Assembly (NCBI GenBank): GCA_045539425.1 | Contig: JAZQFH010000013.1 | Coordinates: 17,094-81,093, forward strand | DNA length: 64,000 bases | Direction of reading: 5' to 3' | Source of the DNA: Erysipelotrichaceae bacterium | GTDB lineage: Bacteria > Bacillota_I > Bacilli_A > Erysipelotrichales > Erysipelotrichaceae | In this document: positions 10,597-24,695 of the stretch, in pieces | Position numbering within the stretch: position 1 is the first letter of the stretch | How the letters are laid out: each line of letters opens with the position of its first letter | Program-made: the position numbers and the translations under genes | Notes under the pieces: generated by a model | Seen by the model: the letters and a program-made list of their open reading frames with translations, nothing else | Told to the model about the DNA's origin: nothing | The model's database searches: none

Positions 10597-10740
10597 ATTA
10601 CGGTACACCTCCACTTTTACAGATTTACTATAAAGGGAAATTACAAATGACTCCACGAAGCATTTATGTAATAAAAAACTGTTTTATTTCATGGAGTTCA
10701 AATAAACATAGAACGACACTCCTATTCTCCAAATATGAAA

Positions 10741-10772
10741 GCACCTCCTGTATGGACAATTAGAGGAGGTGC
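10741..10772 (-). promoter_or_regulatory. strong leader hairpin (possible attenuator) upstream of the GH-PTS operon
   Basis: GCACCTCCT (10741-10749) pairs with AGGAGGTGC (10764-10772): 9 bp with a 14-nt loop. On the minus strand it is followed by TTTCATATTT. Confidence 0.45.
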
Positions 10773-10807
10773 CGTTGCTACATATAACGTCTGATATCTG
10801 TGTATTC

Positions 10808-10835
10808 ATCATACAGAATGTGTTTTATCATTCAA
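10808..10835 (-). promoter_or_regulatory. candidate sigma-A promoter of the GH-PTS operon
   Basis: On the minus strand: TTGAAT (10835-10830), 16-nt spacer, TATGAT (10813-10808). It lies about 205 nt upstream of ATG 10596. Confidence 0.4.
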
Positions 10836-10868
10836 ATAAAGAAAAGGCATACCGTAACGGGTATGCCT
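10833..10868 (-). terminator. intrinsic terminator after the SPFH gene
   Basis: GGCATACC (10846-10853) pairs with GGTATGCC (10860-10867). On the minus strand it is followed by TTTTCTTTATTT. Confidence 0.7.
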
Positions 10869-10888
10869 GTAGGAATCATGTGATTTCT

Positions 10889-11776
10889 TTATTTCTCGGC
10901 CAGTTCCTTAATGGAAGTAACTGTTTTCGCCAGATCCTGCATGTCGCTAGGAACGATAATCTTCGTTGCCTGTCCGTCTGCCATCTTTTCCGTGGCTTCC
11001 ATGGAACGGATTGCCAGGTATTCCTGGGACGGTTTGGCTTCATTGATCACTTTGATTGCTTCCGCTTTTGCCAGAGCGATCTGACGTACGCTTTCCGCTT
11101 CACCCTGAGCTTCACGGATCAGTCTTTCCTTGTAAGCTTCCGCTTTCAGGATTGCACTTTCCTTTTCACCTTCTGCTTCGGTGATAGCGGCCTGTTTCTG
11201 ACCTTCTGCCTTTAAGATTGCTTCACGTTTCTCACGTTCCGCTTTCATTTCCTTTTCCATCGCTTCCTGAATGGAGCGCGGCGGCATGATGTTCTGAACT
11301 TCCACACGTTTGACATCGATTCCCCAGTTATCCGCTGCCGTGTCCAGTAAGCGGGTGATCTGGGAGTTGATGATGTCTCTGCCTGTGAGCGTTTCATCCA
11401 GCGTCATGGAGCCGAGGATGTTACGCAGTGTTGTGGCACATAAGTTTTCCAGAGCTGCAATCGGGCGTTCGACTTTATATGTCAGAGCTTTCGGGTCAAT
11501 GACCTGGAAGTATACGACAGAGTCAACCTGCATTGTGACGTTATCCTTTGTGATAACACTCTGCGGTTCAAAGTCGGCGACCTGTTCCTTTAAGGAAATC
11601 TTACGGACGATTTTGGAAATAAAGGGTTTCTTTAAATGTAAGCCTGCTTCCCATGTACCGGCATATTTACCGAGATCTTCGACGATCCAGACATAGCTTT
11701 CCGGTACGATATTGATACAGGTAACCAGTAAAACAATAATGAGTAAAACGATTACTCCGATAATGACATATTGCAT
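10889..11776 (-). CDS. SPFH/band-7 (stomatin/prohibitin-like) membrane protein
   Basis: 295 aa with an N-terminal TM helix (VIIGVIVLLIIVLLV). Has an SPFH core and a C-terminal charged coiled region, PRSIQEAMEKEMKAEREKRE. Confidence 0.85.
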   Translation of the reverse strand: MQYVIIGVIVLLIIVLLVTCINIVPESYVWIVEDLGKYAGTWEAGLHLKKPFISKIVRKISLKEQVADFEPQSVITKDNVTMQVDSVVYFQVIDPKALTYKVERPIAALENLCATTLRNILGSMTLDETLTGRDIINSQITRLLDTAADNWGIDVKRVEVQNIMPPRSIQEAMEKEMKAEREKREAILKAEGQKQAAITEAEGEKESAILKAEAYKERLIREAQGEAESVRQIALAKAEAIKVINEAKPSQEYLAIRSMEATEKMADGQATKIIVPSDMQDLAKTVTSIKELAEK

Positions 11777-11787
11777 ATATGTTCCTC

Positions 11788-12213
11788 CTATCTGCGTTTA
11801 ATGCTGTTGAAGATGATCGAAAGGATCATAGCGATGAAGATGAGCGGTAAAAATGTAAATGCGACAGGCATGAAGCCGCTTGAGAAATCCGACAGGATCA
11901 TCACAAATACCATAACGATGAAGAACACCGTAAAGCCTGTGATTGCCGCTACCATGCTTTTTGCGGCATTCGTGGGATTCACAGATCTTTGCGGATTGTT
12001 TACCGGACGTTCAACCGGACCGGTCTTCATTCTTTCGTAAGACGGGCGTAAACGCGATCTGTGTTCTGCTTCATGTTCCAGTCTGACTTCATCTCTTTCA
12101 CAGTTATCTTCATGTTTTTTTCTTAATGTACTGGCATTGTCATCAAGATCCCAGTGGCTGATGCGGCTTTCAAATTTCAGTTCCTGCTCCAGCCAGTCAT
12201 CCTGTTTGATCAT
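11788..12213 (-). CDS. hypothetical membrane protein (charged N-terminal half, two C-terminal TM helices)
   Basis: ORF 11788-12219. The second ATG (12213) has better spacing to AAAGGAGG. The C-terminus is AAITGFTVFFIVMVFVMIL..FTFLPLIFIAMILSIIF. No OB-fold NfeD-like region recognised. Confidence 0.55.
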   Translation of the reverse strand: MIKQDDWLEQELKFESRISHWDLDDNASTLRKKHEDNCERDEVRLEHEAEHRSRLRPSYERMKTGPVERPVNNPQRSVNPTNAAKSMVAAITGFTVFFIVMVFVMILSDFSSGFMPVAFTFLPLIFIAMILSIIFNSIKRR

Positions 12214-12318
12214 ACGCATTCCCCTCCTTTGACTCTATTATACTACCATGTATCTCAGTTTGACGTTTTTTTCACAAGTTACCTGAAAATTGATACAGGA
12301 TTCCTTTCAAACCATGAA

Positions 12319-13146
12319 CTAGGCATTCTCCTGCGTTTTCAGGTGATTCAGGAAGAATTCCGCTGTTTTTCCTACCAGAATGTCACTCTGCCCCATTCGG
12401 TTGTTCCAGAGCCCGAAACCGTGGTTGGCGCAGGGAATCATTACCAGTTCCTTATCCTTCTTTGTGGTAAGGCTCTCATAAGTGCGCTTAGCCGTAAATG
12501 GAGGTACCGTGTCATCCGCTTCTCCGTGCACGATGATCACATTGCCCTGATATTCCTTCATGGCACTGACAGGAGAAAGCTCCATTCCTTCATAGAACTC
12601 TCTGGAAAGATGCAGGATCCTGCCGTCAAAGGCATTCAGATAATCGGCATAACCTTTATCCATAGCCTCTTTCTTTAAAGAGCGGCCGTTTTCATCATAC
12701 AGGAACACCTTGAGTTCTTCTTCGTCATTAATGGCAGCAGCCCAGAGCGCAATCGTCTGAAAACGCGGGTCTTCTTTGGTGACATAGAGGGATGTGAGAC
12801 GTCCGCCCATGGAATAGCCAACCATGAACAGCTGTTCTTCATCAATGAAATAGTGGTCAAACATATAGTCGATACATGTTCTGATATCCGCAAAGCTGTT
12901 CTTCAGACAGTAATTCTCAAACGGTTCCTTGGATTCATCACAGCCGGACTGTCCCATCATGATGGAGGAGACACCGTGCTCAGCCAGCAGTTTTGCGACT
13001 TCCACAAAGCGGCCCCCTTCTGTTCTGTCGGCACAGAATCCGTGGACAAAGACGCAGAGTGCTCCGTTTGGTTTATCCGGTAAAACTTCCGTGCAGTACA
13101 GATCCGTATTGCGCTTTGATGTCAGGATCAGATTCGTGATTTTCAT
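12319..13146 (-). CDS. alpha/beta-fold hydrolase
   Basis: 275 aa. Has the nucleophile elbow VGYSMGG, then HGEADD and ANHGF as candidate Asp and His of the triad. Confidence 0.8.
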   Translation of the reverse strand: MKITNLILTSKRNTDLYCTEVLPDKPNGALCVFVHGFCADRTEGGRFVEVAKLLAEHGVSSIMMGQSGCDESKEPFENYCLKNSFADIRTCIDYMFDHYFIDEEQLFMVGYSMGGRLTSLYVTKEDPRFQTIALWAAAINDEEELKVFLYDENGRSLKKEAMDKGYADYLNAFDGRILHLSREFYEGMELSPVSAMKEYQGNVIIVHGEADDTVPPFTAKRTYESLTTKKDKELVMIPCANHGFGLWNNRMGQSDILVGKTAEFFLNHLKTQENA

Positions 13147-13160
13147 AGTTTCTCCTTTTC

Positions 13161-13185
13161 AAAAAGGCTCAATCGAGCCTTTTTT
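13161..13185 (-). terminator. intrinsic (bidirectional-type) terminator after the nucleoside hydrolase gene
   Basis: AAAAAGGCTC (13161-13170), loop AATC, GAGCCTTTTT (13175-13184). Confidence 0.75.
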
Positions 13186-14122
13186 ATGCATAGCGTTCAT
13201 CCAGGATCCTGAGTGAATCAAAGATAACCTGAACGAATTTCTCTCTGTCAACGGATAAGAGAACTGTCTTCGGGTTGACGATCTCATCCGCATATCCGCG
13301 GGTGTCCACGACCGTCATGCCACGGCAGTATTCCCCTACCGTTTCAATATAGACCGCTCTCTCTTCGCTTTCGAAGTATTCCGGATGCAGGAGGTAGATG
13401 ATGGGCGTGCAGTCAAAGATTGCCGTACGGTCCCAGCCGTTGCGGATCGCATATCTCTGATAGAACTGCATCAGATCATAGAACAGTCTGGATGCCTTGC
13501 CTCCGTCTTTTGCCTTCTCTGTTTCACTCAGGAGAATGCTGCCGGAGTAGCAGACCTCAATGCCCGCCATGATGACTTTGACACCGGAATCAAATACGAT
13601 TTTTGCGGCATCGGGATCATGGTAGATGTTGAATTCCGCCTTGACGAGGATGTTTCCGTTGGTAATGCCTCCGCCCATAATGGCGATGCATTCGATTTTA
13701 TCCTTCAGCTCCGGATAGGTCTTAAGGAATAAGCCCATGTTGGTCAGAGGACCGATACATACGAAGGTCACCTTTCCTTCCGTTTCGAGAAGTGTTTTCC
13801 GCATGAATTCAATCGCATGCATGCCGGTTGTCTTCAGTGGGCTATCTTCGAGTACAGGACCGTCCATGCCGCTTTCCCCGTGCGCTGCAGGCTGTACTTC
13901 CAGCGGTCGGATCAGCGGAGAATCATATCCCTTGCTGACAGGAAGATTGATACCGAAATAGGACTGAACCTTGAGAAGGTTATTGGTAACCTTCTCAAGA
14001 GTCTGATTTCCGGCTACAGTTGTAAAACCTAAGATATTGAAGTTCTGACTATGAGCCAAAGCAACCATGATGGCAATAATGTCATCATGCCCGGGATCAC
14101 AGTCAATGATAATATTTTTCAT
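13184..14122 (-). CDS. inosine-uridine-preferring-type nucleoside hydrolase
   Basis: 312 aa. N-terminal signature IIIDCDPGHDDIIAI. ATGA overlap with the upstream permease gene. Confidence 0.9.
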   Translation of the reverse strand: MKNIIIDCDPGHDDIIAIMVALAHSQNFNILGFTTVAGNQTLEKVTNNLLKVQSYFGINLPVSKGYDSPLIRPLEVQPAAHGESGMDGPVLEDSPLKTTGMHAIEFMRKTLLETEGKVTFVCIGPLTNMGLFLKTYPELKDKIECIAIMGGGITNGNILVKAEFNIYHDPDAAKIVFDSGVKVIMAGIEVCYSGSILLSETEKAKDGGKASRLFYDLMQFYQRYAIRNGWDRTAIFDCTPIIYLLHPEYFESEERAVYIETVGEYCRGMTVVDTRGYADEIVNPKTVLLSVDREKFVQVIFDSLRILDERYA

Positions 14123-15036
14123 TGTTCGGCAACATGGCCTTTCTTCGTCTGGGCTGTCTTAATCACTGCTAAGAGAACGATGACGATAAAGACCGCGAAG
14201 TACGGAACCGCACCGACCAGGTCAACCGGCAGTTTGCCTGCGAGGATGATGGCGATGGAACGGAAGATACCGAACACGGCTGTTGCGAGCATCAGGATGC
14301 CGTAGTTTCCGCTGGCAATGCCGTTTGCCGCAATACCCATCCAGCCTAAGCCAGCCGCAATACCGTTGGTATAGATCGGACTGTAGTTCATGGACAGATA
14401 GATGCCGCCTAAGGATGCAAGTACACCGGAAAGGATCAGCGATAAGATCTGCAGACGTTCGACGTTGATACCGGCTGTTCTTGCGGAATCCGCATTTAAG
14501 CCGCAGGAGCGCATGCGCAGTCCCGTCGGTGTCTTATACAGGAAGATGTATAAGAGAATGGCAGCGATGACTACGACATAGACAAGTACCAGCTGACCGG
14601 AAAGGATCTGACCGATAATCGGTATATCCTTGATCAGAGGAATATCGATGGTTCCAAAAGTCGGCGCAAACAGTTTGGCGCTGGTTCCCTTTTCTCCCGT
14701 AAACTGATAGAGGATGAAGGCTGCCAGAGAACTGGAGAATGTATTTAAGGCAATACCGACCAGAGTCGCATTGGCGCCTAAACGCATGGAGAAGAAGGCT
14801 ATTAATAATGCCATTAATACACCGGTTAATACACCGATCAGTAAGCCTAAGAAAGCGCTCTTGGTAAGATAGGAACCGATGATACCCATTAAGGCACCCA
14901 TCGTCATGATACCTTCGATTGCGATATTGCCGATACCGGTGGAAGCCGCCACGAAGGAACCGAGGGATGCAAACAGAATCGGAGTGATCAGTCGGATCAC
15001 ACGTAACAGGAAGTCCATAGTGAATACGTTAGTCAT
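14119..15036 (-). CDS. ABC transporter permease (BMP/nucleoside-type importer, second permease)
   Basis: 305 aa polytopic protein. Its order after the ATPase and first permease matches NupNOPQ / RnsBACD-type loci. It overlaps both neighbouring genes. Confidence 0.85.
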   Translation of the reverse strand: MTNVFTMDFLLRVIRLITPILFASLGSFVAASTGIGNIAIEGIMTMGALMGIIGSYLTKSAFLGLLIGVLTGVLMALLIAFFSMRLGANATLVGIALNTFSSSLAAFILYQFTGEKGTSAKLFAPTFGTIDIPLIKDIPIIGQILSGQLVLVYVVVIAAILLYIFLYKTPTGLRMRSCGLNADSARTAGINVERLQILSLILSGVLASLGGIYLSMNYSPIYTNGIAAGLGWMGIAANGIASGNYGILMLATAVFGIFRSIAIILAGKLPVDLVGAVPYFAVFIVIVLLAVIKTAQTKKGHVAEQ

Positions 15037-16144
15037 TTTTCTCTAAGCCCTCCTTTAATAATTTCTTCTCACGGTATCTGCGCAGGAAGTACTGCGAGGA
15101 TACGAGCAGAACCACGATACCTTCAACAATCGCGATGATTTCCGAAGGAACGGAGTTATCGTTGAAATACAGAACGCTCGCGCCTTCTTCAAGATAGCGA
15201 ATGAAGAACGTTGCGACCATGATGCCAATCGGATTGTTGCGTCCGAGCATGGCGAGCAGACATCCCGTGAAACCGATACCGACTACGGAGACGGAAGGCT
15301 GATAGAAGGACATCTGTGTCAGAACGTGAACGGCACTTCCCATACCTGCCAAGGCACCGGCGATGAAGTTGGTGATCAAAGCAAGTTTGAAAGCGTTGAT
15401 ACCGGAATAATCCGCAAAGGACGGGTTGGTACCGGCAACACGGATCTGATAGCCGAGTTTTGTCTTCTTCAGCATGATCTGCATCAGGATGACGACGATG
15501 ATCATTAAGATGAACATCGGACCGATATGGTAATCCTTGATCAGGTACTTGTTTAACAGTGATGCCGAGGATAAGAAGCTCGGAGTACCGATCGTGGATG
15601 TCGTTGTGCTTAACAGATAGTTACGGACGATATGGACGCTCAGTGCGGAATAGATCGAGTTCAGCATGAGCGAGATAACGAGTTCGTTGGCTTCGAATTT
15701 CGCCTTTAGAATCGCCGGAATCAGCATCAGAACACCACCGACAAGTGCACTTGCGACGATGGCAAGCGCCGGATGGAGGATGGCGTTTGTGGTAAGGGCG
15801 TTACAGGCAACTGCGGAGCAGACAACACCGGTCAGAACATAGATACCTTCTGCACCGAGGTTGAAGAAACCCGCTTTGAATAACAGACCGCAAGCCAGAC
15901 CGGCGAAGGTATAGGTGATCATCTGTTCAAAGACGATTCCCAGATATCTTTTCTTTGTCAGGGCACCCGTTAAAATGGTACGGAATGCATTGACCGGATT
16001 ATCAGATACAAACAGCAGGATTACAAATGTGATAGCTAAGGCAATCAGAATCGAAATCACGATTTTGATCGTTTCAAATACCGTGCTGTTTGTAATGGAC
16101 AGATTCTTGATCAGTGATTTGTTCCTCAGATCTTTCTTATCCAT
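15029..16144 (-). CDS. ABC transporter permease (BMP/nucleoside-type importer, first permease)
   Basis: 371 aa polytopic protein. It overlaps the ATPase stop and the next permease start. Confidence 0.85.
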   Translation of the reverse strand: MDKKDLRNKSLIKNLSITNSTVFETIKIVISILIALAITFVILLFVSDNPVNAFRTILTGALTKKRYLGIVFEQMITYTFAGLACGLLFKAGFFNLGAEGIYVLTGVVCSAVACNALTTNAILHPALAIVASALVGGVLMLIPAILKAKFEANELVISLMLNSIYSALSVHIVRNYLLSTTTSTIGTPSFLSSASLLNKYLIKDYHIGPMFILMIIVVILMQIMLKKTKLGYQIRVAGTNPSFADYSGINAFKLALITNFIAGALAGMGSAVHVLTQMSFYQPSVSVVGIGFTGCLLAMLGRNNPIGIMVATFFIRYLEEGASVLYFNDNSVPSEIIAIVEGIVVLLVSSQYFLRRYREKKLLKEGLEKND

Positions 16145-17699
16145 TCATTGCACCTCCGATCTCTTCGGCGCTCTGGTGTTTGGCGCCTAACATGTAAATG
16201 CCCAGTTCCTGGTCATTTGTTTTACGGGCATCCGGGAAATAGCCGGCGATCTCCCCTTCGAACATGACAATGATTCTGTCGGAGAGGTCGAGAACTTCGT
16301 TTAAGTCAGCGGAGACTAAGAGAATACCGGCACCCTTGTTTCTGAGTTCAATCAGCTTATGGTGAACCAGTTCGGCAGAACCGATATCGATACCATGTGT
16401 CGGCTGTTCAGCAATCATGAAGTTTGGATCGGTGTTGTATTCTCTGGCAACGACGACTTTCTGTACGTTACCGCCGGAAAGAGATCCGACATTGGTCTTG
16501 CTGTCCTGTGTTTTAACGGCAAATGTTTCGATCAGCTGATCAGAGATTTTGTCAATGGCCTTCTGATTCATGAAGATTTTGCCGTTGATATCTTCTCTTT
16601 CGAAATAGGAAGAGATAATATTGTCGGAAATCGGCAGCGTAGCGGCAATTCCATCCACCATTCTGTCTTCCGGGATATATGCCATGCCGTTTTCACGTCT
16701 TTGCTTGACATTCATTCCGTTGATATCTTTTCCGCAGATGAGAATCTTACCTTCATATTCCGTCTTGGAAAGACCTGCCAGACATTTGACCAGTTCGGAC
16801 TGACCGTTTCCTTCAACACCGGCAATGCCAAGGATCTCGCCCTTCTTGACAGCGAAATTCATATGGTTCAAAACCGGTTTTCCGTTGCGTTCCATGTAGA
16901 GATCTTCCACAACGAGAGCTTTTTCATTATGGAAATCCTCATGAGTCTTGTACTGAGTCAGATCTTTTTCCAGATCACGTCCGATAATCAGGTTGGTCAG
17001 CTGTTCCATCGTTAATTCATCATTCCGGTACGTGCCTTTGGAAACACCGTTACGGATGACGGAAATTCTGTCAGAAATCTTTTTGACTTCCTCAAGCTTG
17101 TGAGAAATGAAGATGATCGTCTGACCCTGCTCCTTGAACTGGCGCAGCTGATCAAACAGTTTTTCCGTTTCCTGTGGCGTCAATACCGATGTCGGCTCGT
17201 CAAGGATGATCAGTTCCGCATTTCGGTAGAGCGTCTTTAAGATTTCGACTTTCTGACGTTTCGCGACAGAAAGTGAGGAAACCTTTTCCGTGACATCCAA
17301 TTCGAAATTGTATTTGTCAGAGACTTCCTGCGTACGGCGGATCGCTTCCTTACGGTCAATAAAGATACCGTTTTTCGGTTCCGAGCCAAGAATGATATTG
17401 TCGACAACACTGAATGACGGAATCAACATGAAGTGCTGATGGACCATTCCGATGCCGGCTTCAATCGCATCCATGGAACTGGTGAAGTGTACTTCCTTCC
17501 CCTTATAGGTCACGCTTCCGCTGGATGGAGCTTCAATCCCGAAGATGACTTTCATCAGTGTCGATTTACCGGCACCGTTTTCACCGACGATGGAGTGAAT
17601 CTCGCCTTTCATAAATTCCATGTTAATGTCACGGTTCGCTACGGTACCATTCGGATACACTTTTGTGACATTATCCAGTTTCAATATGGTTTCTGCCAT
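16137..17699 (-). CDS. ABC transporter ATP-binding protein with duplicated ATPase domains
   Basis: Start trimmed to ATG 17699 (MAETILKLDNV), which has GGAGGAGGAA upstream. Motifs: Walker A GENGAGKST, LSVAKRQKVEI, and LSGGNVQKV in the second domain. Confidence 0.9.
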   Translation of the reverse strand: MAETILKLDNVTKVYPNGTVANRDINMEFMKGEIHSIVGENGAGKSTLMKVIFGIEAPSSGSVTYKGKEVHFTSSMDAIEAGIGMVHQHFMLIPSFSVVDNIILGSEPKNGIFIDRKEAIRRTQEVSDKYNFELDVTEKVSSLSVAKRQKVEILKTLYRNAELIILDEPTSVLTPQETEKLFDQLRQFKEQGQTIIFISHKLEEVKKISDRISVIRNGVSKGTYRNDELTMEQLTNLIIGRDLEKDLTQYKTHEDFHNEKALVVEDLYMERNGKPVLNHMNFAVKKGEILGIAGVEGNGQSELVKCLAGLSKTEYEGKILICGKDINGMNVKQRRENGMAYIPEDRMVDGIAATLPISDNIISSYFEREDINGKIFMNQKAIDKISDQLIETFAVKTQDSKTNVGSLSGGNVQKVVVAREYNTDPNFMIAEQPTHGIDIGSAELVHHKLIELRNKGAGILLVSADLNEVLDLSDRIIVMFEGEIAGYFPDARKTNDQELGIYMLGAKHQSAEEIGGAMNG

Positions 17700-17720
17700 A
17701 TTCCTCCTCCTGTTTTCTAT

Positions 17721-17758
17721 AAAAATATATGCTCTATTAGGGCATAATAGAGCATATA
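17721..17758 (-). terminator. perfect 14-bp intercistronic hairpin with T-run (partial terminator/attenuator) between the binding-protein and ATPase genes
   Basis: TATATGCTCTATTA (17726-17739) pairs with TAATAGAGCATATA (17745-17758), with a 5-nt loop. On the minus strand it is followed by TTTTTAT, then the ATPase SD. Confidence 0.6.
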
Positions 17759-17784
17759 CTTCGTGCAATGTTAATTAGAATTAA

Positions 17785-18921
17785 TTATTTGCTGGCTTTG
17801 TTTGCGTCTCTCCATTCGACCCATTTTGCATATTCATCAGCGCTCATCGCCATTGTATCTGTAACAGTGATTTTGCCATCCTGAATATCCTTAACAACCT
17901 GGTCGACTTTGGCTCTGATTTCAGCAGAGACGTTTGCCTGATAGAATTCGTTGTTGGATAAGCCAACACCATTGGAATCCAGAGACCATGCTTCTGTCTT
18001 TCCTAATTTTTCAGCGAATGTGCCTTCAACAACCATTCTGACTGCTTCTGCTAAGACAACGTCAGAGTTCTTCTGAGCGGAAGTGATGATTGTCTTTGCC
18101 CAATCCGGCTGAGATGTTAAGAACTGACCATACTGGTCCTGGTCAACGCCAACACACCAGACTTCCGGATATTCCGCACAAGCCTGAATGACACCGTTAC
18201 CTGTACCACCAGCAACCTGCCAGACAACGTCTGCGCCGGCTTTGATGATGTCAGTCGTCTGTTCGTAACCAGCCTGCTGATCCTGGAACGGAGATGTGGA
18301 AACAACGTAGTCAACGATGAATTCAACACCTTTTTCGCTTAAAGCCTGGCACCAGCCACCGATGAACTGGTTCATAGCCTGGTTGTCCATACCTAATAAG
18401 ACGCCGACTTTGTTTGTCTTTGTGATTTCAGCACTTAATGTTGCAACAACATAACCTAAAGGACCTAAGCCGTAGTTGATGTTGTAGACGTTTTTGCAAG
18501 TGTCTCTGATTGTGGAAGCATCGAAGTTCATGAATGCCTGATCCGGATATCTTTCAGCAGCATCGTATAAGTATTCCTCATAGGAGTTGTTGCCGGAAAC
18601 GACTAAGTCGTATTCACCGTCTTCACAGAATTCATCAAAAGCGTTGTCCCAGACACCCTTTTCAGTTGTGTTACCAACTTCTTTGATGACGACATCAACT
18701 TTGTCACCATAGAGTTCAGTTGCTTTCGTAACGCCTCTGGCTAACGTATCGAAATAGGAGTTGTCGCCAGTGAACGGAACTAAAACAGCAACTTTCTTTT
18801 TCGTGACTTCTGCCGGTGTATCGCCTTCGCCGGATGGAGTCGGTTCTTCATTACCTTTGGAGCAAGCTGTTAAGCTGACAACCAACAGTAATGCGAGTAA
18901 AACAGTTAATAATTTTTTCAT
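17785..18921 (-). CDS. BMP-family (PnrA/Med/NupN-like) substrate-binding lipoprotein
   Basis: 378 aa. Signal peptide with lipobox, MKKLLTVLLALLLVVSLTAC. Periplasmic-binding fold pattern. ATGA overlap with the upstream ARH gene. Confidence 0.85.
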   Translation of the reverse strand: MKKLLTVLLALLLVVSLTACSKGNEEPTPSGEGDTPAEVTKKKVAVLVPFTGDNSYFDTLARGVTKATELYGDKVDVVIKEVGNTTEKGVWDNAFDEFCEDGEYDLVVSGNNSYEEYLYDAAERYPDQAFMNFDASTIRDTCKNVYNINYGLGPLGYVVATLSAEITKTNKVGVLLGMDNQAMNQFIGGWCQALSEKGVEFIVDYVVSTSPFQDQQAGYEQTTDIIKAGADVVWQVAGGTGNGVIQACAEYPEVWCVGVDQDQYGQFLTSQPDWAKTIITSAQKNSDVVLAEAVRMVVEGTFAEKLGKTEAWSLDSNGVGLSNNEFYQANVSAEIRAKVDQVVKDIQDGKITVTDTMAMSADEYAKWVEWRDANKASK

Positions 18922-20960
18922 TTTTCTCTCCTTTTACTGTTTTCTATATTTAAATCCAGCGTGCTGAATTTAAATCCATGGATTTCTGTAACGGCAGAAC
19001 TGAGGGAAAGAATTCCAATTCCGCCTTCAGGCATTTCCGGAAAATCGATCGAACACGATTCATCATTGAAATACACAGTAATTTTATCATTACTGAAGAC
19101 TGCTTTCAATGAATTTAGTATCAATATTTTATTGCTGATATTTTGAGAATACAATTTGGTGTATTTTTTGCCTTTCCGGTAAAGTTCAAGGCTGTTTCCG
19201 TTGATACCGAGCGCATAGAAATCCTGATATCCCCTGAAGCCGAAAACAAGCATTGCACTGAGGTTTTCGTTATTCTCAAAGTTCATCTCAATGCTTTTAG
19301 CGTGCATGGAAAGCGTGCCTGTTGTGATCAGGGCGTGAGGTGTCCCCTGTCCTTTTAAGCCGTTCTCGGAAAGAATCCACTTTCCGGAATGATTGTTAAA
19401 GCTGCGGATATTGTAAAGCGTATCACCGGCATAGCGCGGTCCGTATCCGTCATAGGAAAGCGTGGAAAAGTCATAGGAAACTCTGCTTTCGTGAGTTACG
19501 GAATAATCTTTCAGATAACACTTTTTCTGTGCAATAAAGCCGATTCTGTGAATGACCGTGTTAACAAAACCCTTGAGACGGAACTCGATTTCGCTCTCGC
19601 CCTGAATGTAATACACTGCTTCCTGCCTGTTCCCTTCGCAGTCTTCCGCAAAGACAGTCAGCCTGTTCTCTTCAGATGATTCAAATAAGAAATGCAAAAG
19701 ATCATGCGGGTAGTACTTCGGTGAGAAGACCGGATCATAGCGCGCATCGTAGATATCTTCCGGCAGATAGTAACTAAAGAAATAAACTTCTTCCTCTTTC
19801 GGTATTTCAAGTCTTCCGTCGGATACGGAAAGATAGGAAGAGCTCCTGAATCCCTCTGTCGCATACGGCAGTAAGAAGTGTCTGTAATCCGGTTTATCAT
19901 ACCCTTTCAGCTGCATGGCGTAGCGCGCAAACATCTGGGCACTGCGGGATACCGTATCGATATTCTCCGAACCGATACAGCTTGAAGCATTGACGACATC
20001 ATTGATCGGCTTGATCCAGTACGGATCAATTCCGTCAATACCTAAAAGTGCCCCCATGATGGAGCCGACATTTCCGCATGTGCAGTCGGTATCCCATCCG
20101 CACTGATTCAGAATGCAGAGTGTACGCGAGAAATCATTTTCTCCATAGCACATGGAAAGAACCATGATGGCACTGTTGGGTATGATATGACAGCTTCCCG
20201 CGAATTTATCATAACCGTAGTTCTTTTGAATATAACGGAAACAATCCAGCCAGTCGTTTGGATTATTCTGGTGGAAGTCCATGATGTCTTTTACAACACG
20301 GTAGTACTTCATACGGTGATCGAGATACCTGAGTGTTTCATTCAGAACATACATGATATCTTCACTCTGCATTGCCAGCGTAATGGCAACTGCCACAAAG
20401 ATTGCGCCCTGCAGTCCGTTTTTATCATGGGTCACGCTTGCCGCCTTGACGGCAAGATCTTTTGCCAGAAGCGGATCATAACCGCTGACATAACCCCAGC
20501 AGTCAGAGAAGATCTGTCCGCCGATCTGCTCCGCCATAACGATGCCGTTCTGCTCTTTGGAGCCGCTTTGCGGAGCACAAATCCCCTTCTTCAGGTTTTC
20601 GTATGCCGTATGTTCCGTTGAAACTCCAATTCCGCCCCACCAGAAAAAGCCGGTATACTCCTGCAAGTAATTCAGAAAGGAATCGCCGATGTCTTTGGCG
20701 CTGATATTGTTTCCTTTTTCGAGCGCACGGACAAAGAACAGAGGCCCGTTGGAATCGTCATCCGCAGCGAAGATATCATAGTCGGTTAAATATCCCTTGA
20801 TATCCGGATACTTTCTCTGTATCTCATCAAATGTCCAGCTTTCAATGGGTGCGCCTAAGCGGATCCCGATGATTTTGCCTAGCCATGAGGCATAGACTCT
20901 CTGAAGATAATCATTGTATGTGGACGGTGTTAGCTGTAGTGTCTGATTCAGTTTTTTCAT
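18918..20960 (-). CDS. ADP-ribosylglycohydrolase-family enzyme fused to C-terminal beta-sandwich (ConA/DUF1080-like) domains
   Basis: 680 aa with no signal peptide. ARH metal-site motifs are present: LGAPIES, AADDDSNGP, GWDTDCTCGNVGSIMGALLG. The C-terminal part, GKWILSENGLKG..VFGFRGYQDFYALGING..ITVYFND..GGIGILSL, looks ConA-like. Confidence 0.75.
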   Translation of the reverse strand: MKKLNQTLQLTPSTYNDYLQRVYASWLGKIIGIRLGAPIESWTFDEIQRKYPDIKGYLTDYDIFAADDDSNGPLFFVRALEKGNNISAKDIGDSFLNYLQEYTGFFWWGGIGVSTEHTAYENLKKGICAPQSGSKEQNGIVMAEQIGGQIFSDCWGYVSGYDPLLAKDLAVKAASVTHDKNGLQGAIFVAVAITLAMQSEDIMYVLNETLRYLDHRMKYYRVVKDIMDFHQNNPNDWLDCFRYIQKNYGYDKFAGSCHIIPNSAIMVLSMCYGENDFSRTLCILNQCGWDTDCTCGNVGSIMGALLGIDGIDPYWIKPINDVVNASSCIGSENIDTVSRSAQMFARYAMQLKGYDKPDYRHFLLPYATEGFRSSSYLSVSDGRLEIPKEEEVYFFSYYLPEDIYDARYDPVFSPKYYPHDLLHFLFESSEENRLTVFAEDCEGNRQEAVYYIQGESEIEFRLKGFVNTVIHRIGFIAQKKCYLKDYSVTHESRVSYDFSTLSYDGYGPRYAGDTLYNIRSFNNHSGKWILSENGLKGQGTPHALITTGTLSMHAKSIEMNFENNENLSAMLVFGFRGYQDFYALGINGNSLELYRKGKKYTKLYSQNISNKILILNSLKAVFSNDKITVYFNDESCSIDFPEMPEGGIGILSLSSAVTEIHGFKFSTLDLNIENSKRREK

Positions 20961-20987
20961 ACTTCCATTATATGGGAATCACAAAGT

Positions 20988-21024
20988 GAAAAAAATAAAA
21001 AAATGAAGCATAACTTCATTTTTT
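20988..21024 (-). terminator. intrinsic terminator after the lipoprotein gene
   Basis: AATGAAG (21002-21008), loop CATAA, CTTCATT (21014-21020). T/A runs flank it on both sides. Confidence 0.65.
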
Positions 21025-21061
21025 GTGTACGGTTATAAAGTGATAGGAAATCGGAATCTGC

Positions 21062-22120
21062 CTAATCCATCTGAATATATTTCTTCAGGTATTCCCTTAA
21101 GCCGGCAGTATCGCGATAGTATGGATTATCCGCATCATTTTCCGCATCCAGCCAGCCGATCAGATCTCCTTGATGGAACACCAGAACAGATGGCGCAAAA
21201 CTGACTTTCTGCGAGATGAAGTTTTCCGTCGCATTGGTGATATTGATGTTCATGTGGTAGATATTCCACTTCATCTCCTCTGCGACTTCCCTTACAATCG
21301 GCGTAAAGGAGGCACAGGTCAGACAGCCCGGAAGATGAAGATAAAGCAGAAACGACTGCTTATGATCCTGCAGGCTTTTGACAGCTTCAATGGAATCAAG
21401 ATCCGTAAAGATATCCTCGGATAACATCGGGAAACTGTCCGCACTTAAGAGCGGTGTTTCTTTTCGGGTCAAAGAGTCAAAATCAATGATGTGATATGTG
21501 ACTTCGGAAAGATCCACGCTGCCGTCTTCCTTTAAGAGATTTCGGGAATGCTCTCCCTTGTAGTACCAGTATCCCCCGGCATTATAGATCTTGTTTTCAT
21601 CATAGCCGAGTTCAATCAGAAGGTCCTTCATCATACCGGCATAGCCTCCGCCGCCGCACATCAGAATGATGGCTTTGTCTTTCGGAAAGATGGATTCTAT
21701 GATGGCTCTGCTTTCTTCGTATACTTCACTCAGCGTTCCGTCTTCATTTCGATGGAACAGTACTCTGCCCTCATACCCAGGAAGAACTTCTTCGGGAAGC
21801 GTCAGCTGATCCACAAAATACGGAAACGGTACAACTTCAAACCCTTCCAGAATTCCGCTGAGGCGGCTGTCTCCGCCGATGGCTTCGTAATTGGCCGGAT
21901 CTTCAATCATGCGGACATCATAGTAGGCACAGTCCTCACGGTTCAGATACTGATCAATCGTTTCCTCATTGATGTTGGCGTCGATTCCGAACATCTCTCC
22001 GCGGATCCCGCTCGCCCTCTGCGGCGTTGGTAACGGATCCAGCTTCGGTGTTACGGAACAGGCTGTCAGAAAAAGAAGAAGTGTAAAAAGACTTATAAGA
22101 CTAATCCTGTGTGGTTTCAT
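21062..22120 (-). CDS. lipoprotein with a rhodanese-like domain and a thioredoxin-like CxxC domain
   Basis: Start trimmed to ATG 22120 (MKPHRISLISLFTLLLFLTAC lipobox). Rhodanese-like IILMCGGGGYAGMM..IYNAGGYWYY. Trx-like LHLPGCLTCASF. The longer ORF-track version would overlap xerD by 173 nt. Confidence 0.65.
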   Translation of the reverse strand: MKPHRISLISLFTLLLFLTACSVTPKLDPLPTPQRASGIRGEMFGIDANINEETIDQYLNREDCAYYDVRMIEDPANYEAIGGDSRLSGILEGFEVVPFPYFVDQLTLPEEVLPGYEGRVLFHRNEDGTLSEVYEESRAIIESIFPKDKAIILMCGGGGYAGMMKDLLIELGYDENKIYNAGGYWYYKGEHSRNLLKEDGSVDLSEVTYHIIDFDSLTRKETPLLSADSFPMLSEDIFTDLDSIEAVKSLQDHKQSFLLYLHLPGCLTCASFTPIVREVAEEMKWNIYHMNINITNATENFISQKVSFAPSVLVFHQGDLIGWLDAENDADNPYYRDTAGLREYLKKYIQMD

Positions 22121-23030
22121 CCTCTTTTTTCTCCTTTCTCTGTGTATCCCGTTTGGGGAAGTAGGCATCATAAGTCTGATGCAGCTGCTTTGCCTGAACA
22201 TGCGTATAGATCTGCGTTGTGGAAATGGAGGAGTGACCGAGCAGCTCCTGAACGGAGCGCAGATCGGCTCCATTGGCTAAAAGATCCGTCGCAAAGGTAT
22301 GGCGGAAGGAATGGGCTGTGATATTCAGATCCAGTCCGAGTTCCTTTTCCTTTGCCGTCAGCATGTCACTGACATACTTGCGGCTGAGCTGATTTCCCCT
22401 GCGGTTGATCAATAGATAACTGAGATTTCTTTTGTTGTATTCCGGACGTGTCCCGTCCAGATAACAGTTCAGAAGATCTGCACTGCTTCTGGCAATTGGT
22501 ACCATCCGCTCCTTATTCCCCTTTCCGAGAACTCTCAGAAAGAGATTGGCACGGTTGTACTGGTTGAGGGTCAGATTGCATACTTCCGAGACCCGCAGTC
22601 CGCAGCTGTACATCAGTTCGCAGATGCAGTGATTCAAAAGTTCATGCGGATCATCATCGTTAAAACTGTCAAACAGACAGTTCAGTTCTTCCTCACTCAG
22701 AAAGCGCGGCAATGTCTTGGAGCGCTTCACGCTGGCCAGATTGACGGCCGGATTCTCCATTTTCAGATTATCCGCCAGATAATAATGAAAGCCCCGGATC
22801 GAGGTCAGAGATCGCGCAACGCTTGATTTCGACAGCTCATCCAAGGCAATGGCAATGTAGTCATAGATGGTTTTCTTACGGATCTCTTCCACTGTTGTGA
22901 TATTACGGGATTCCAGATAGGAAAAATAGCGCTTCAGATCAGCAGAATAGCTTTCGATGGAGCGGCTGCTCATTCCTTTGTTTACCGTGATATCGGTGAT
23001 GTAAAGATCGTAGGCATCTTTTAATAACAT
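22101..23030 (-). CDS. xerD: tyrosine site-specific recombinase XerD-type
   Basis: 309 aa. The C-terminal catalytic region is HSFRHTFATDLLANGADLRSVQELLGHSSISTTQIYTHV. Confidence 0.85.
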   Translation of the reverse strand: MLLKDAYDLYITDITVNKGMSSRSIESYSADLKRYFSYLESRNITTVEEIRKKTIYDYIAIALDELSKSSVARSLTSIRGFHYYLADNLKMENPAVNLASVKRSKTLPRFLSEEELNCLFDSFNDDDPHELLNHCICELMYSCGLRVSEVCNLTLNQYNRANLFLRVLGKGNKERMVPIARSSADLLNCYLDGTRPEYNKRNLSYLLINRRGNQLSRKYVSDMLTAKEKELGLDLNITAHSFRHTFATDLLANGADLRSVQELLGHSSISTTQIYTHVQAKQLHQTYDAYFPKRDTQRKEKKEDETTQD

Positions 23031-23048
23031 GTTATATCTATTCTATTA

Positions 23049-24695
23049 CTATTTTTCCTGTAAATGATCCAGAAGCTCTTTTGCGCTCTTTAAGGCACTC
23101 TCGCTTTCGGATCCTGTTGCGATATTGGCAAGTTCTCTGATCCTGCCGTCATAATCGAGAGTTCTGACTCTGGAATACGTCTTGTTATCGGCAACTTCCT
23201 TATAAATGTAGTAATGCTGCTTCGCACAGGCAGCGACCTGTCCGAGATGGGTAATGGAGAATACCTGGGCATTCTCGGCAATCTTGCGCATCTTCAAGCC
23301 GATGGAAGTCGCAATCTTACCGCTGACTCCGCTGTCGATTTCATCAAAGATGATCGTTTCGATACCATAAAGGGAGTTAAAGATCGTCTTTAAGCCCAGC
23401 ATGATGCGGCTCAGCTCACCGCCGCTGGCAACTTCCGCAAGCGGATTGAGCGGCTGTCCGACGTTGGTGGAGATGTAGAACTCGACGCGGTCAATTCCTC
23501 TGATATTACCGCTGTGCTCCGCTAAATCCACACGGAATGTCGTACTGCTCAGTTCCAAGTCACGCAGTTCGCTCTCGATTTCTTTCTCAAGTTTCTTTGC
23601 GGCTGCCTGACGCTTTTTGCTGAGGGTGGAGGCTGCTTCATAATAGAGGTTATATGCCTCTTCCACTTCCGCCTTTGCCTGTCTGATATATTCTTCGCGG
23701 TTTTCCATTAAGGCCAGCTTATCGGACATATCAGCATATTTTTTCTGCATGGCGGAATAGGTTCCGCCGTATTTACGAATGACTTTCTTTAAATCGTAAA
23801 TACGCGACAGGATGCGGTTAAATTCGTTTTCATCATAGGAAAGCGAGTGATAATAATCGGAAACGCGTTCAAAGAGATCTTCCAGTTCATAGTAGTGATC
23901 ATTAATCTTCTGGATCTCATTCTGCAGTTCCGCATCATGAACTTCTTCCAGTTCTCTTTTTCCGAGATACAGCTTTTCCAAAGCGCCGTTATTTCCGGAG
24001 AACTCTTCTATGGCATTGCTTAATGCCTGGGATGTTTTCTCAAAGGAAAGGAGTTTGCGTTCCTTTTCTTCCAGCTCATCCAGCTCACCTTCATACGTGT
24101 TTACCTTCTCGATTTCCGCTTTCTGGAATAACAGATAATCGCGCTCATCCTCGCTGTAATCTGTCTGTAAGGAAGTCTCAAGGCTCTGCTTGCGGGCGGA
24201 ATACTCCTGATATTTTGCGGAAACTTCAGCCAGAAGCTGATCTTCCTTCATATACTCATCCAGCAGTTTCAGATGGTTTTTCGGATTCAGAAGATACTGC
24301 GTTCCGTGCTGGTTATGAATATCAATCAGATGCTGCGTCAGTTCCCTGGCAAATCCCTGGGTAATGGCGCGGTAGTTCAGACGCATTGTGCTTCTTCCGT
24401 CTTTGGTGATTTCCCTGCTCAGGATGTTTTCCTCTTCCGCTTCAAAACCGGAATTGTAAAGGAAGTTCAGAGCGGCAGGATTCTGAATGGTGAAAACCGC
24501 TTCGATCACGGCCTTCTCCGCACCGCTGCGGACAACGTTTGTGCTCAGTCTTTCACCGCATAAAAGCGAAATCGCATCAATAATGATGGACTTTCCGGCA
24601 CCCGTTTCACCTGTAAAGACAGAAAAGCCATCGGCGAAATCCAGGCTTAATTCATCGATAATGACATAATCTTTAATATAAAGATGTAAGATCAT
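23049..24695 (-). CDS. recN: DNA repair protein RecN
   Basis: 548 aa. Walker A FTGETGAGKSIIIDAI, long coiled-coil centre, C-terminal ASGGELSRIMLG. Confidence 0.95.
   Translation of the reverse strand: MILHLYIKDYVIIDELSLDFADGFSVFTGETGAGKSIIIDAISLLCGERLSTNVVRSGAEKAVIEAVFTIQNPAALNFLYNSGFEAEEENILSREITKDGRSTMRLNYRAITQGFARELTQHLIDIHNQHGTQYLLNPKNHLKLLDEYMKEDQLLAEVSAKYQEYSARKQSLETSLQTDYSEDERDYLLFQKAEIEKVNTYEGELDELEEKERKLLSFEKTSQALSNAIEEFSGNNGALEKLYLGKRELEEVHDAELQNEIQKINDHYYELEDLFERVSDYYHSLSYDENEFNRILSRIYDLKKVIRKYGGTYSAMQKKYADMSDKLALMENREEYIRQAKAEVEEAYNLYYEAASTLSKKRQAAAKKLEKEIESELRDLELSSTTFRVDLAEHSGNIRGIDRVEFYISTNVGQPLNPLAEVASGGELSRIMLGLKTIFNSLYGIETIIFDEIDSGVSGKIATSIGLKMRKIAENAQVFSITHLGQVAACAKQHYYIYKEVADNKTYSRVRTLDYDGRIRELANIATGSESESALKSAKELLDHLQEK

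Follow-up and report, generated by a model that had tools for sequence, protein, structure and literature searches.

What does an enzyme with the fold of the ADP-ribosylglycohydrolases (ARHs) do at the head of an operon for nutrient import? Nearly all that is known of ARH-fold enzymes concerns the removal of ADP-ribosylation, be it in nitrogenase control, DNA-damage signaling or toxin immunity. The question is raised by a stretch of 64,000 nucleotides, hereafter the window, from a gut or rumen Erysipelotrichaceae bacterium (assembly GCA_045539425.1, contig JAZQFH010000013.1, positions 17,094 to 81,093). Between positions 13184 and 20960 the window carries six co-directional genes, all on the minus strand. 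The open reading frame (ORF) list and Pfam identify them, in order, as genes for an ARH-fusion protein, a Bmp lipoprotein, a double ATP-binding cassette (ABC) ATPase, permease 1, permease 2 and a nucleoside hydrolase of the IUNH family. The same order had been proposed in an earlier, sequence-only reading of this DNA. The ARH-fusion/Bmp/ABC/IUNH gene set is referred to below as the cassette. We favor, at somewhat better than even confidence, an operon for the uptake and breakdown of ribosides or nucleosides, in which the ARH-fusion protein would be a ribose-releasing hydrolase acting on non-phosphorylated ribosides and not a protein de-ADP-ribosylase.

The cassette genes are tightly packed. 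The ARH and Bmp genes overlap by ATGA, as do the permease 2 and IUNH genes, and overlaps of 8 nt join the ATPase gene to permease 1 and permease 1 to permease 2; the overlaps that the sequence-only reading had noted at four junctions are thus two of the ATGA type and two of 8 nt. The ATGA overlap of the ARH and Bmp genes suggests that these two genes may be translationally coupled. A terminator-like hairpin (13161-13184, minus strand; -13.4 kcal/mol, z = -3.3) lies 3' of the IUNH stop codon. It reads AAAAAGGCTC-GATT-GAGCCTTTTT, or AAAAAGGCUC-GAUU-GAGCCUUUUU as RNA. The earlier reading had placed a terminator at 13161-13185 and let it close the unit; the hairpin is real, but a further gene begins 15 nt past it, with its own ribosome-binding site and no space for a promoter. 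This gene (12319-13146, minus strand) encodes an α/β-hydrolase of 275 residues with Pfam matches to Peptidase_S9, Hydrolase_4 and a BD-FAE-like esterase. As it lies so close to the hairpin and is found with the ARH gene in nine related loci of one subclade, to which the window belongs, we would extend the unit to 12319. The hairpin is probably a leaky terminator-like element, and the transcription unit probably comprises seven genes, the α/β-hydrolase being read through as the seventh.

The ARH-fusion gene (18918-20960, minus strand) encodes 680 residues. Residues 24 to 312 match PF03747 (ADP_ribosyl_GH) at 1.6e-53, with 182.7 bits against a curated cut-off of 26.2 and coverage of profile positions 1-285 of 287, and the ~330 C-terminal residues have no Pfam match. 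An AlphaFold2 (AF2) model built on 43 homologues, with a predicted local distance difference test score (pLDDT) of 92.9, comprises an all-helical catalytic domain (residues 12-351; 19908-20927, minus strand) and two β-sandwich domains. Foldseek aligned the helical domain with MJ1187, ARH3 and DraG at E-values of about 1e-9 and target TM-scores of 0.72-0.77; a sequence and profile search of solved structures with the ARH-fusion protein detected MJ1187 alone, and identity to E. coli YegU is about 20%. Candidate metal and catalytic residues are E40 (in PIE), D67/D68/D69, H178 and D290/T291/D292/C293. E40, D67-D68-D69 and D290-T291-D292 are invariant in the 43 homologues and in 81 family members, as are H178 and C293, and the metal-site motifs align with their equivalents in MJ1187 and YegU. 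The earlier statement that the PIE, DDD and DTD motifs are all kept is therefore well founded. The last position of the DxD(T/S) motif is occupied by Cys293 in place of Thr or Ser. The domain also carries signatures of its own: FFWWGG (105-110), EQIGGQIF (144-151) and CHIIPN (257-262).

The C-terminal part folds into two β-sandwiches. The first (about residues 356-500; 19461-19895, minus strand) resembles tandem ConA-like, LamG-type and galectin-type domains in the AF2 models as compared by Foldseek, and contains the motif D402..D405-x-R407-Y408-x-P410 (DxxDxRYxP), which is invariant in both clades of the family described below. The second (about residues 501-668; 18957-19460, minus strand) is ConA-like and CBM66-like by Foldseek and poorly conserved, at 15-26% identity across the family. 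A separate AF2 model of residues 356-680 (pLDDT 88.9) again matched tandem ConA-like, LamG-type and galectin-type sandwiches, so that the ConA-like domains of the earlier reading are recovered as two C-terminal β-sandwiches. The closest single-domain match is the fructan-binding CBM66 (4b1m, 4azz; target TM-score 0.71-0.76, E-values of 1e-6 to 2e-5); the C-terminal sandwich of GH32 fructofuranosidases was matched by this model as well. The protein has no N-terminal hydrophobic stretch or signal peptide as read from its sequence, which is consistent with the cytoplasmic location assigned to it earlier. A secreted lectin-enzyme was considered and rejected on account of the missing signal peptide.

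Relatives of the ARH-fusion protein are numerous. A word-indexed search returned more than 100 full-length relatives of 40-67% identity, mostly from Erysipelotrichaceae metagenome-assembled genomes, and an exhaustive search of 50%-identity representatives gave 358 clusters at E<=1e-30. Since the best 150 of these 358 clusters are mostly 640-770 residues long, the ARH-plus-sandwich architecture defines a sizeable family. Searching for homologues with the C-terminal half alone gave two matches and no alternative architectures. Loci were collected from genome contigs and from a metagenome scan with the family alignment, their genes were called and the neighbors clustered, yielding 87 loci (L001-L087) that carry ARH-fusion relatives. 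A tree of 81 ARH-fusion members splits into clade A, to which the window protein belongs, and its sister, clade B. Linkage was counted after dereplication at 90%, which gives 16 clade A and 41 clade B lineages.

The two clades keep different company. A Bmp/CUT2 ABC importer is linked to the ARH-fusion gene in 13 of the 16 clade A lineages and in 2 of the 41 clade B lineages, and a RihA-like IUNH in 11/16 and 0/41, respectively. For ribokinase the counts are 0/16 and 16/41, and for CUT1 permeases 1/16 and 19/41. The clade A counts bear out, across deep divergence, the association of ARH, importer and IUNH genes on which the sequence-only reading had relied. Clade A lineages without Bmp or IUNH are mostly on contigs that end near the ARH gene; L047 is the exception, with unrelated ORFs after its ARH gene. 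The cassette is no chance grouping: it recurs with differing flanks at 34-67% ARH identity, among them unrelated flanks at 57% and 42% identity, and further metagenome loci show the same. In L026 and L046 the IUNH gene directly follows the ARH gene and the transporter is transcribed divergently, and in L010 two opposite-strand genes stand between the ARH and Bmp genes. The clade A cassette thus survives rearrangement of gene order.

Clade B operons take the form of an SBP_bac_1 binding protein, two BPD_transp_1 permeases (an oligosaccharide-type ABC importer), the ARH-fusion and a ribokinase. By TIGR02152 the kinase is a bona fide ribokinase, scoring 356 bits where 299.65 would suffice. Fifteen of the loci (L013-L018, L021, L031-L035, L048, L053 and L070) also encode, divergently from the CUT1-ARH-ribokinase operon, a LacI-ribokinase fusion of 636-650 residues (e.g. 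L018:4252-6162), in which a LacI-family helix-turn-helix and sugar-binding domain are joined to a full ribokinase-like PfkB domain. This fusion may serve as an unusually built regulator that senses ribose. Additional products encoded in some clade B loci are a distant IUNH-like protein, short ARH paralogues, a GH28-like protein and metallo-β-lactamase-fold proteins. In both clades the ARH domain shares 51-59% identity with that of the window protein. The candidate catalytic residues are without exception common to the two, as are the FFWWGG, EQIGGQIF, CHIIPN and DxxDxRYxP signatures; it is the C-terminal sandwiches that fall to 15-30% identity across the family. Because the ARH domain is so similar and its catalytic residues are all common, both clades would cleave the same bond, with ribose as a product. 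The linkage to ribokinase in clade B points to bulk ribose catabolism. An ARH acting on a ribosyl compound, as the earlier reading had supposed, thus gains support from the ribokinases and LacI-ribokinase fusions of clade B. In L027 and L044 a further gene of pentose metabolism, for ribulose-phosphate 3-epimerase, directly precedes the ARH gene.

A second, shorter ARH paralogue of 330-490 residues was observed beside the fusion in many loci (L010:2959-4350, L023, L051, L064, L068-69, L073-75 and L087). Such paired paralogues suggest substrates in which the ribosyl linkages are of more than one kind.

The importer of the cassette is of a recognizable kind. The Bmp gene (17785-18921, minus strand; 378 residues, Pfam Bmp 2.2e-31) encodes a lipoprotein signal, MKKLLTVLLALLLVVSLTAC, with the lipobox LTAC. 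Its family relationship is seen in matches to the PDB entries of Lbp (7x0r, 1.7e-25) and TmpC/PnrA (2fqw, 7e-21), and the NCBIfam models score far under their cut-offs. The protein contains the motifs GDNSYFD, NFD, NQF, AGGTGNG, GVDQDQ and TSAQK. NFD, GVDxDQ and TSxxK are kept in the window protein and the cassette orthologues, as are the aromatic positions Y55/F56 (SYF) and F186 (NQF). BmpA, BmpD and PnrA bind ribose through an Asp/Asp/Lys set and stack the base between an aromatic pair (PMC13325309, PMC7093131); in BmpA the ligand residues are Asp98, Asp225, Lys242, Phe27 and Phe176 (PMC13325309). In an alignment based on sequence only, NFD, GVDQDQ, TSAQK, SYF and NQF occupy the positions of these residues. 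This supports no more than a predicted ligand of nucleoside size, comprising ribose and a flat aglycone. The double ATPase gene (16137-17768 as listed, minus strand; 543 residues) encodes two ABC_tran domains of the CUT2 type, which resemble the putative-B6, AraG, XylG and RbsA models and stay under all their cut-offs. Permease 1 (15029-16144, minus strand; 371 residues) and permease 2 (14119-15036, minus strand; 305 residues) are both BPD_transp_2 proteins. The Bmp lipoprotein, the fused double ATPase and the two BPD_transp_2 permeases are thus found together in one operon.

The last gene of the cassette (13184-14122, minus strand) encodes the IUNH of 312 residues, which matches PF01156 (IU_nuc_hydro) over its full length at 1.8e-81 and 274.5 bits. 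DCDPGHDD at residues 7-14 corresponds to the DXDXXXDD calcium and ribose motif. The protein aligns end to end with RihA (3g5i, 3.3e-67) and keeps the equivalent of His82 as His81, while the position of RihA His239 is taken by Phe236; 'FD' instead of 'HD' is found in all 14 cassette IUNH orthologue sequences examined. With 290 bits the protein stays under the RihA equivalog cut-off of 433, and that of the RihC equivalog is not reached either. The cassette enzyme is therefore predicted to be an IUNH-family member, RihA/RihC-like, that is not of canonical group I. In group I enzymes His239 is the general acid that protonates the leaving group. Judged by IUNH enzymology, its loss suggests that the leaving group departs without protonation or is activated by stacking.

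Two loci carry a second system for comparison. A convergent CUT2-type ABC system lies directly beside the ARH cassette at L005:17806-22067 and L006:11547-15808, and ends in an IUNH paralogue of 336 residues that keeps 'HD', together with a TauE-family exporter. Neighboring nucleoside-type systems in L005 and L006 thus differ in their hydrolase active sites.

Orthologues of the window α/β-hydrolase accompany the cassette in other loci, at two different places. They follow the IUNH gene in L001-L004. In L008-L010 and L057 they stand directly before the ARH gene, with an ATGA overlap in L008, L009 and L057. L012 and L052 have an esterase of a different family (BD-FAE) ahead of the ARH gene, and an M20 amidohydrolase gene comes after the IUNH gene in L012 and L020.

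On these grounds we propose the following order of events. The Bmp lipoprotein would capture a ligand made of ribose and a flat aglycone, and the CUT2 transporter, composed of the double ATPase and the two permeases, would import it. Two unrelated cytoplasmic hydrolases would then free ribose: the IUNH by RihA-like cleavage of β-N-ribosidic bonds, and the ARH-fusion, with a two-metal site buttressed by two lectin-like sandwiches, by hydrolysis of a ribosyl C1 linkage beyond the reach of the IUNH. The co-conserved esterase would probably take off an acyl group beforehand. Ribose as the product, a phosphate-free substrate and this role of the esterase are, we infer, the most likely assignments. 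Candidate substrates are O-ribosylated nucleosides cut in series, α-ribosides, acylated or otherwise modified nucleosides, and intracellular ADP-ribose metabolites.

Several points weigh against this proposal. The window of 64 kb contains no ribokinase, and we infer ribose as the product from the sister clade only. Conservation of the Bmp motifs does not identify the ligand, and the base pocket differs from that of the characterized proteins, because a cassette-specific 'SYFD' replaces 'SFN'. The importer may carry canonical nucleosides only, in which case the substrate of the ARH protein would be an endogenous metabolite. The hairpin at 13161-13184 could terminate transcription fully and so uncouple the esterase gene. 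In the literature searched on ARH enzymes in connection with a nucleoside hydrolase, an ABC transporter or a riboside, we found no characterization of the ARH-fusion family. Finally, every characterized ARH enzyme acts, to our knowledge, on ADP-ribosyl substrates.

This last point counts in turn for an ARH-fusion that acts on an intracellular metabolite of the ADP-ribose type, in NAD or nucleotide recycling, and not on imported cargo. O-acetyl-ADP-ribose, ADP-ribose 1''-phosphate and free ADP-ribosyl conjugates are candidates, and the strong Pfam match with intact metal motifs agrees with such a function. We nevertheless consider it unlikely, given that the ARH gene is linked to two importer classes and to a ribokinase, which requires a free 5-OH on ribose, that Nudix, macrodomain and sirtuin genes do not recur in the neighborhoods examined, and that the sequence is very distant from ARH1, ARH3 and DraG. 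A sequential breakdown of imported O-ribosylated ('disaccharide') nucleosides would keep the ARH-fusion on the imported cargo: like ARH3, it would cleave the O-glycosidic bond between two riboses, and the IUNH would then split the remaining nucleoside. This could apply to 2'-O-ribosyladenosine released by digestion of poly(ADP-ribose), to the Ar(p)/Gr(p) modifications of tRNA, or to dephosphorylated products of TIR domains. ARH3, which cleaves ribose-ribose and other O-linked ribosyl bonds, is a close structural neighbor of the ARH-fusion by Foldseek; two ribose-releasing hydrolases are paired in clade A, IUNH-like proteins occur with ribokinase in some clade B loci too, and an NPP-type phosphodiesterase is encoded in a divergent operon of one lineage. 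Such compounds are, however, rare next to RNA-derived nucleosides, and the ARH-fusion is the sole hydrolase in most clade B loci. Moreover, the Bmp protein appears by sequence to keep the ribose triad of a deeply buried pocket with scant room for a second ribose (PMC13325309). Overall this route seems to us of low probability.

Salvage of a micronutrient is a further reading, in which the ARH-fusion and the esterase would trim queuosine (including its glycosylated or glutamylated forms), nicotinamide riboside or the cobamide constituent α-ribazole, and the IUNH would free the base. ARH enzymes act on α-ribosyl bonds, as found in α-ribazole, esterase and M20 amidohydrolase genes recur in the loci, and the missing His239 general acid of the IUNH fits an unusual or cationic leaving group. 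The queuosine hydrolase QueK, too, is of the IUNH family, and known transporters of Q precursors are QPTR and QrtT/QueT (PMC11130926). Queuosine had been named as an alternative substrate class in the sequence-only reading. That suggestion fared poorly: neither a riboswitch, preQ1 or other, nor a leader came up when 12000-23000 was scanned with Rfam, and the annotated genes of 8137-24695 include no tgt, queL, QPTR, QrtT or known Q-precursor transporter, so that the parts of a QueK/QueL pathway with QrtT or QPTR are not found in the locus; queuosine salvage was rejected on this basis. The ribokinase of clade B, the ribulose-phosphate epimerase and the sugar regulators indicate carbon catabolism and not trace salvage, and ARH chemistry takes off ribosyl, not mannosyl or galactosyl, groups. 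We regard micronutrient salvage as quite improbable. Still less can be said for a DraG-like regulatory remover of protein ADP-ribose, or for an adjacency that is merely inherited synteny without shared function. DraG and ARH1 are classical members of the fold, and many of the loci come from related Erysipelotrichaceae. Yet the cassette is retained while its flanks change and its gene order shifts (with a divergent transporter in L026 and L046 and an interruption in L010), the ATGA overlap of the ARH and Bmp genes suggests translational coupling, and PADLOC returned no defense-system match for the three cassette proteins tested. No ADP-ribosyltransferase partner gene was found in any of the loci examined, for which reason the DraG-like role was rejected; we see very little chance for either version.

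Returning to uptake and breakdown of ribosides, the favored operon function admits a more far-reaching form, which we offer tentatively and consider doubtful. The ARH-fusion family could be an unrecognized class of metal-dependent ribofuranosidases, the first of the ARH fold without ADP in their natural substrates, working here in series with a His-less IUNH on one doubly ribosylated cargo. If true, gut and rumen Firmicutes would harvest ribose from linkages resistant to IUNH enzymes and phosphorylases, such as α- or O-linked ribosides, for example ribosyl-nucleosides from the breakdown of poly(ADP-ribose), tRNA or TIR signals. A family of 358 clusters wired to nutrient importers, nucleoside hydrolases and ribokinase would extend the ARH fold to nutrient catabolism, and would point to a gut or rumen pool of ribose-containing compounds overlooked by present pathway maps. 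It could also offer a way into long-standing orphans, among them yegTUV of E. coli and the ARH genes of Bacteroidetes ribose-utilization loci. The system itself is real, conserved and uncharacterized; it would be one of nucleoside and ribose scavenging, with an ARH-fold enzyme cast in a metabolic role not expected of this fold.

Nearest among published concepts are the Bacteroidetes ribose-utilization (RUS) loci, although the window unit is not itself a RUS. These are ribose-induced and contain ribokinases and variable enzymes, including nucleoside hydrolases and some ADP-ribosylglycohydrolases, which have been proposed to liberate ribose from a range of sources (Glowacki et al., bioRxiv 10.1101/574913). 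Both systems couple import to ribose-releasing enzymes and would scavenge covalently bound ribose, and ribokinases are found in RUS and in clade B. RUS, however, belong to Gram-negative bacteria and are SusC/SusD polysaccharide-utilization loci that include a RusT permease, whereas the window unit is a lipoprotein-dependent CUT2 ABC system of a Firmicute; it has no SusC/SusD, and neither the cassette nor the window has a ribokinase. The window ARH is a 680-residue fusion with two β-sandwiches, and the RUS ARH enzymes are uncharacterized.

The importer genes have the same layout as those of the Bmp/PnrA systems (Treponema pallidum PnrA/TmpC, Borrelia burgdorferi BmpA/BmpD, Streptococcus pneumoniae PnrA), and by sequence alignment the ligand motif positions appear to be kept. 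NupNOPQ and RnsBACD are further nucleoside ABC importers of this type. Unlike the window operon, the characterized systems are not headed by an ARH gene, and the window Bmp protein is distant from theirs. The IUNH shares DXDXXXDD and the His82 equivalent with E. coli RihA and RihC but has Phe at the position of His239. With ARH1, ARH3, DraG, MJ1187 and YegU the window protein has in common the all-helical fold and the Glu, Asp-Asp and Asp-x-Asp motifs; it adds two β-sandwiches and its own signatures, and its context is nutrient import, with ribokinase in the sister clade, and not ADP-ribosyltransferases. YegU is also encoded beside a nucleoside-type transporter. The yegT-yegU-yegV linkage is as the earlier reading described it and is still uncharacterized (PMC10819704). 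It consists of an NHS-family transporter of the major facilitator superfamily, a stand-alone ARH and a PfkB kinase, whereas the window unit combines an ABC importer with an ARH fusion and lacks a kinase; yegTUV is only remotely related to the window operon.

Two features of the operon bear on its expression. Between the Bmp and ATPase genes lies an intergenic hairpin (17722-17762, minus strand) with an 18-bp stem followed by UUUUU, whose centroid fold has -20.4 kcal/mol and z = -4.2. It is probably an intra-operon attenuator or 3'-end stabilizer that would give an excess of binding-protein mRNA. The hairpin also indicates that the TTG at 17768, listed as the ATPase start, is wrong. The true start is probably the ATG at 17699, behind the ribosome-binding site AGGAGGAGG, which gives a gene of 16137-17699 (minus strand) and a protein of 520 residues; the ATPase orthologues have 518-522 residues, matching this length.

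At the head of the operon, a scan for consensus promoters gave nothing exceeding the shuffled expectation. A perfect TATAAT was observed at 20967-20972, 6 nt ahead of the ARH ATG, and a Shine-Dalgarno sequence of good spacing is absent. The ARH gene may therefore be expressed from a leaderless transcript. This arrangement is not conserved, because the orthologous locus L001 has a conventional leader with TATAAT and GGAGG.

Other genes border the cassette in single lineages or a few. A YjjI-like glycyl-radical protein (PF11230) and a radical-SAM activase adjoin it in three lineages (L002:1262-3602, L026, L046 and L052:6708-9064); in E. coli, yjjI stands beside the deo operon for nucleoside catabolism. 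Upstream of the ARH gene, L005 (4321-9801), L006 and L007 have a divergently oriented operon whose products are an SBP_bac_1 binding protein, an ATPase, two CUT1 permeases and an NPP-type phosphodiesterase (PF01663). A link of this operon to the breakdown of pyrophosphate-containing ribosyl compounds is possible, in this one lineage only.

Within the window, a GH95-like (fucosidase-family) ORF of 839 residues is located at 8137-10656, ~1.7 kb downstream of the esterase gene. On the other side of the cassette, an AT-rich terminator-like hairpin at 20998-21024 belongs to the upstream thioredoxin-domain gene. The ORF of the latter (21062-22273, 403 residues) overlaps a XerC/D-like recombinase ORF (22101-23030) by 173 nt, and because of this overlap its true start is probably further downstream.

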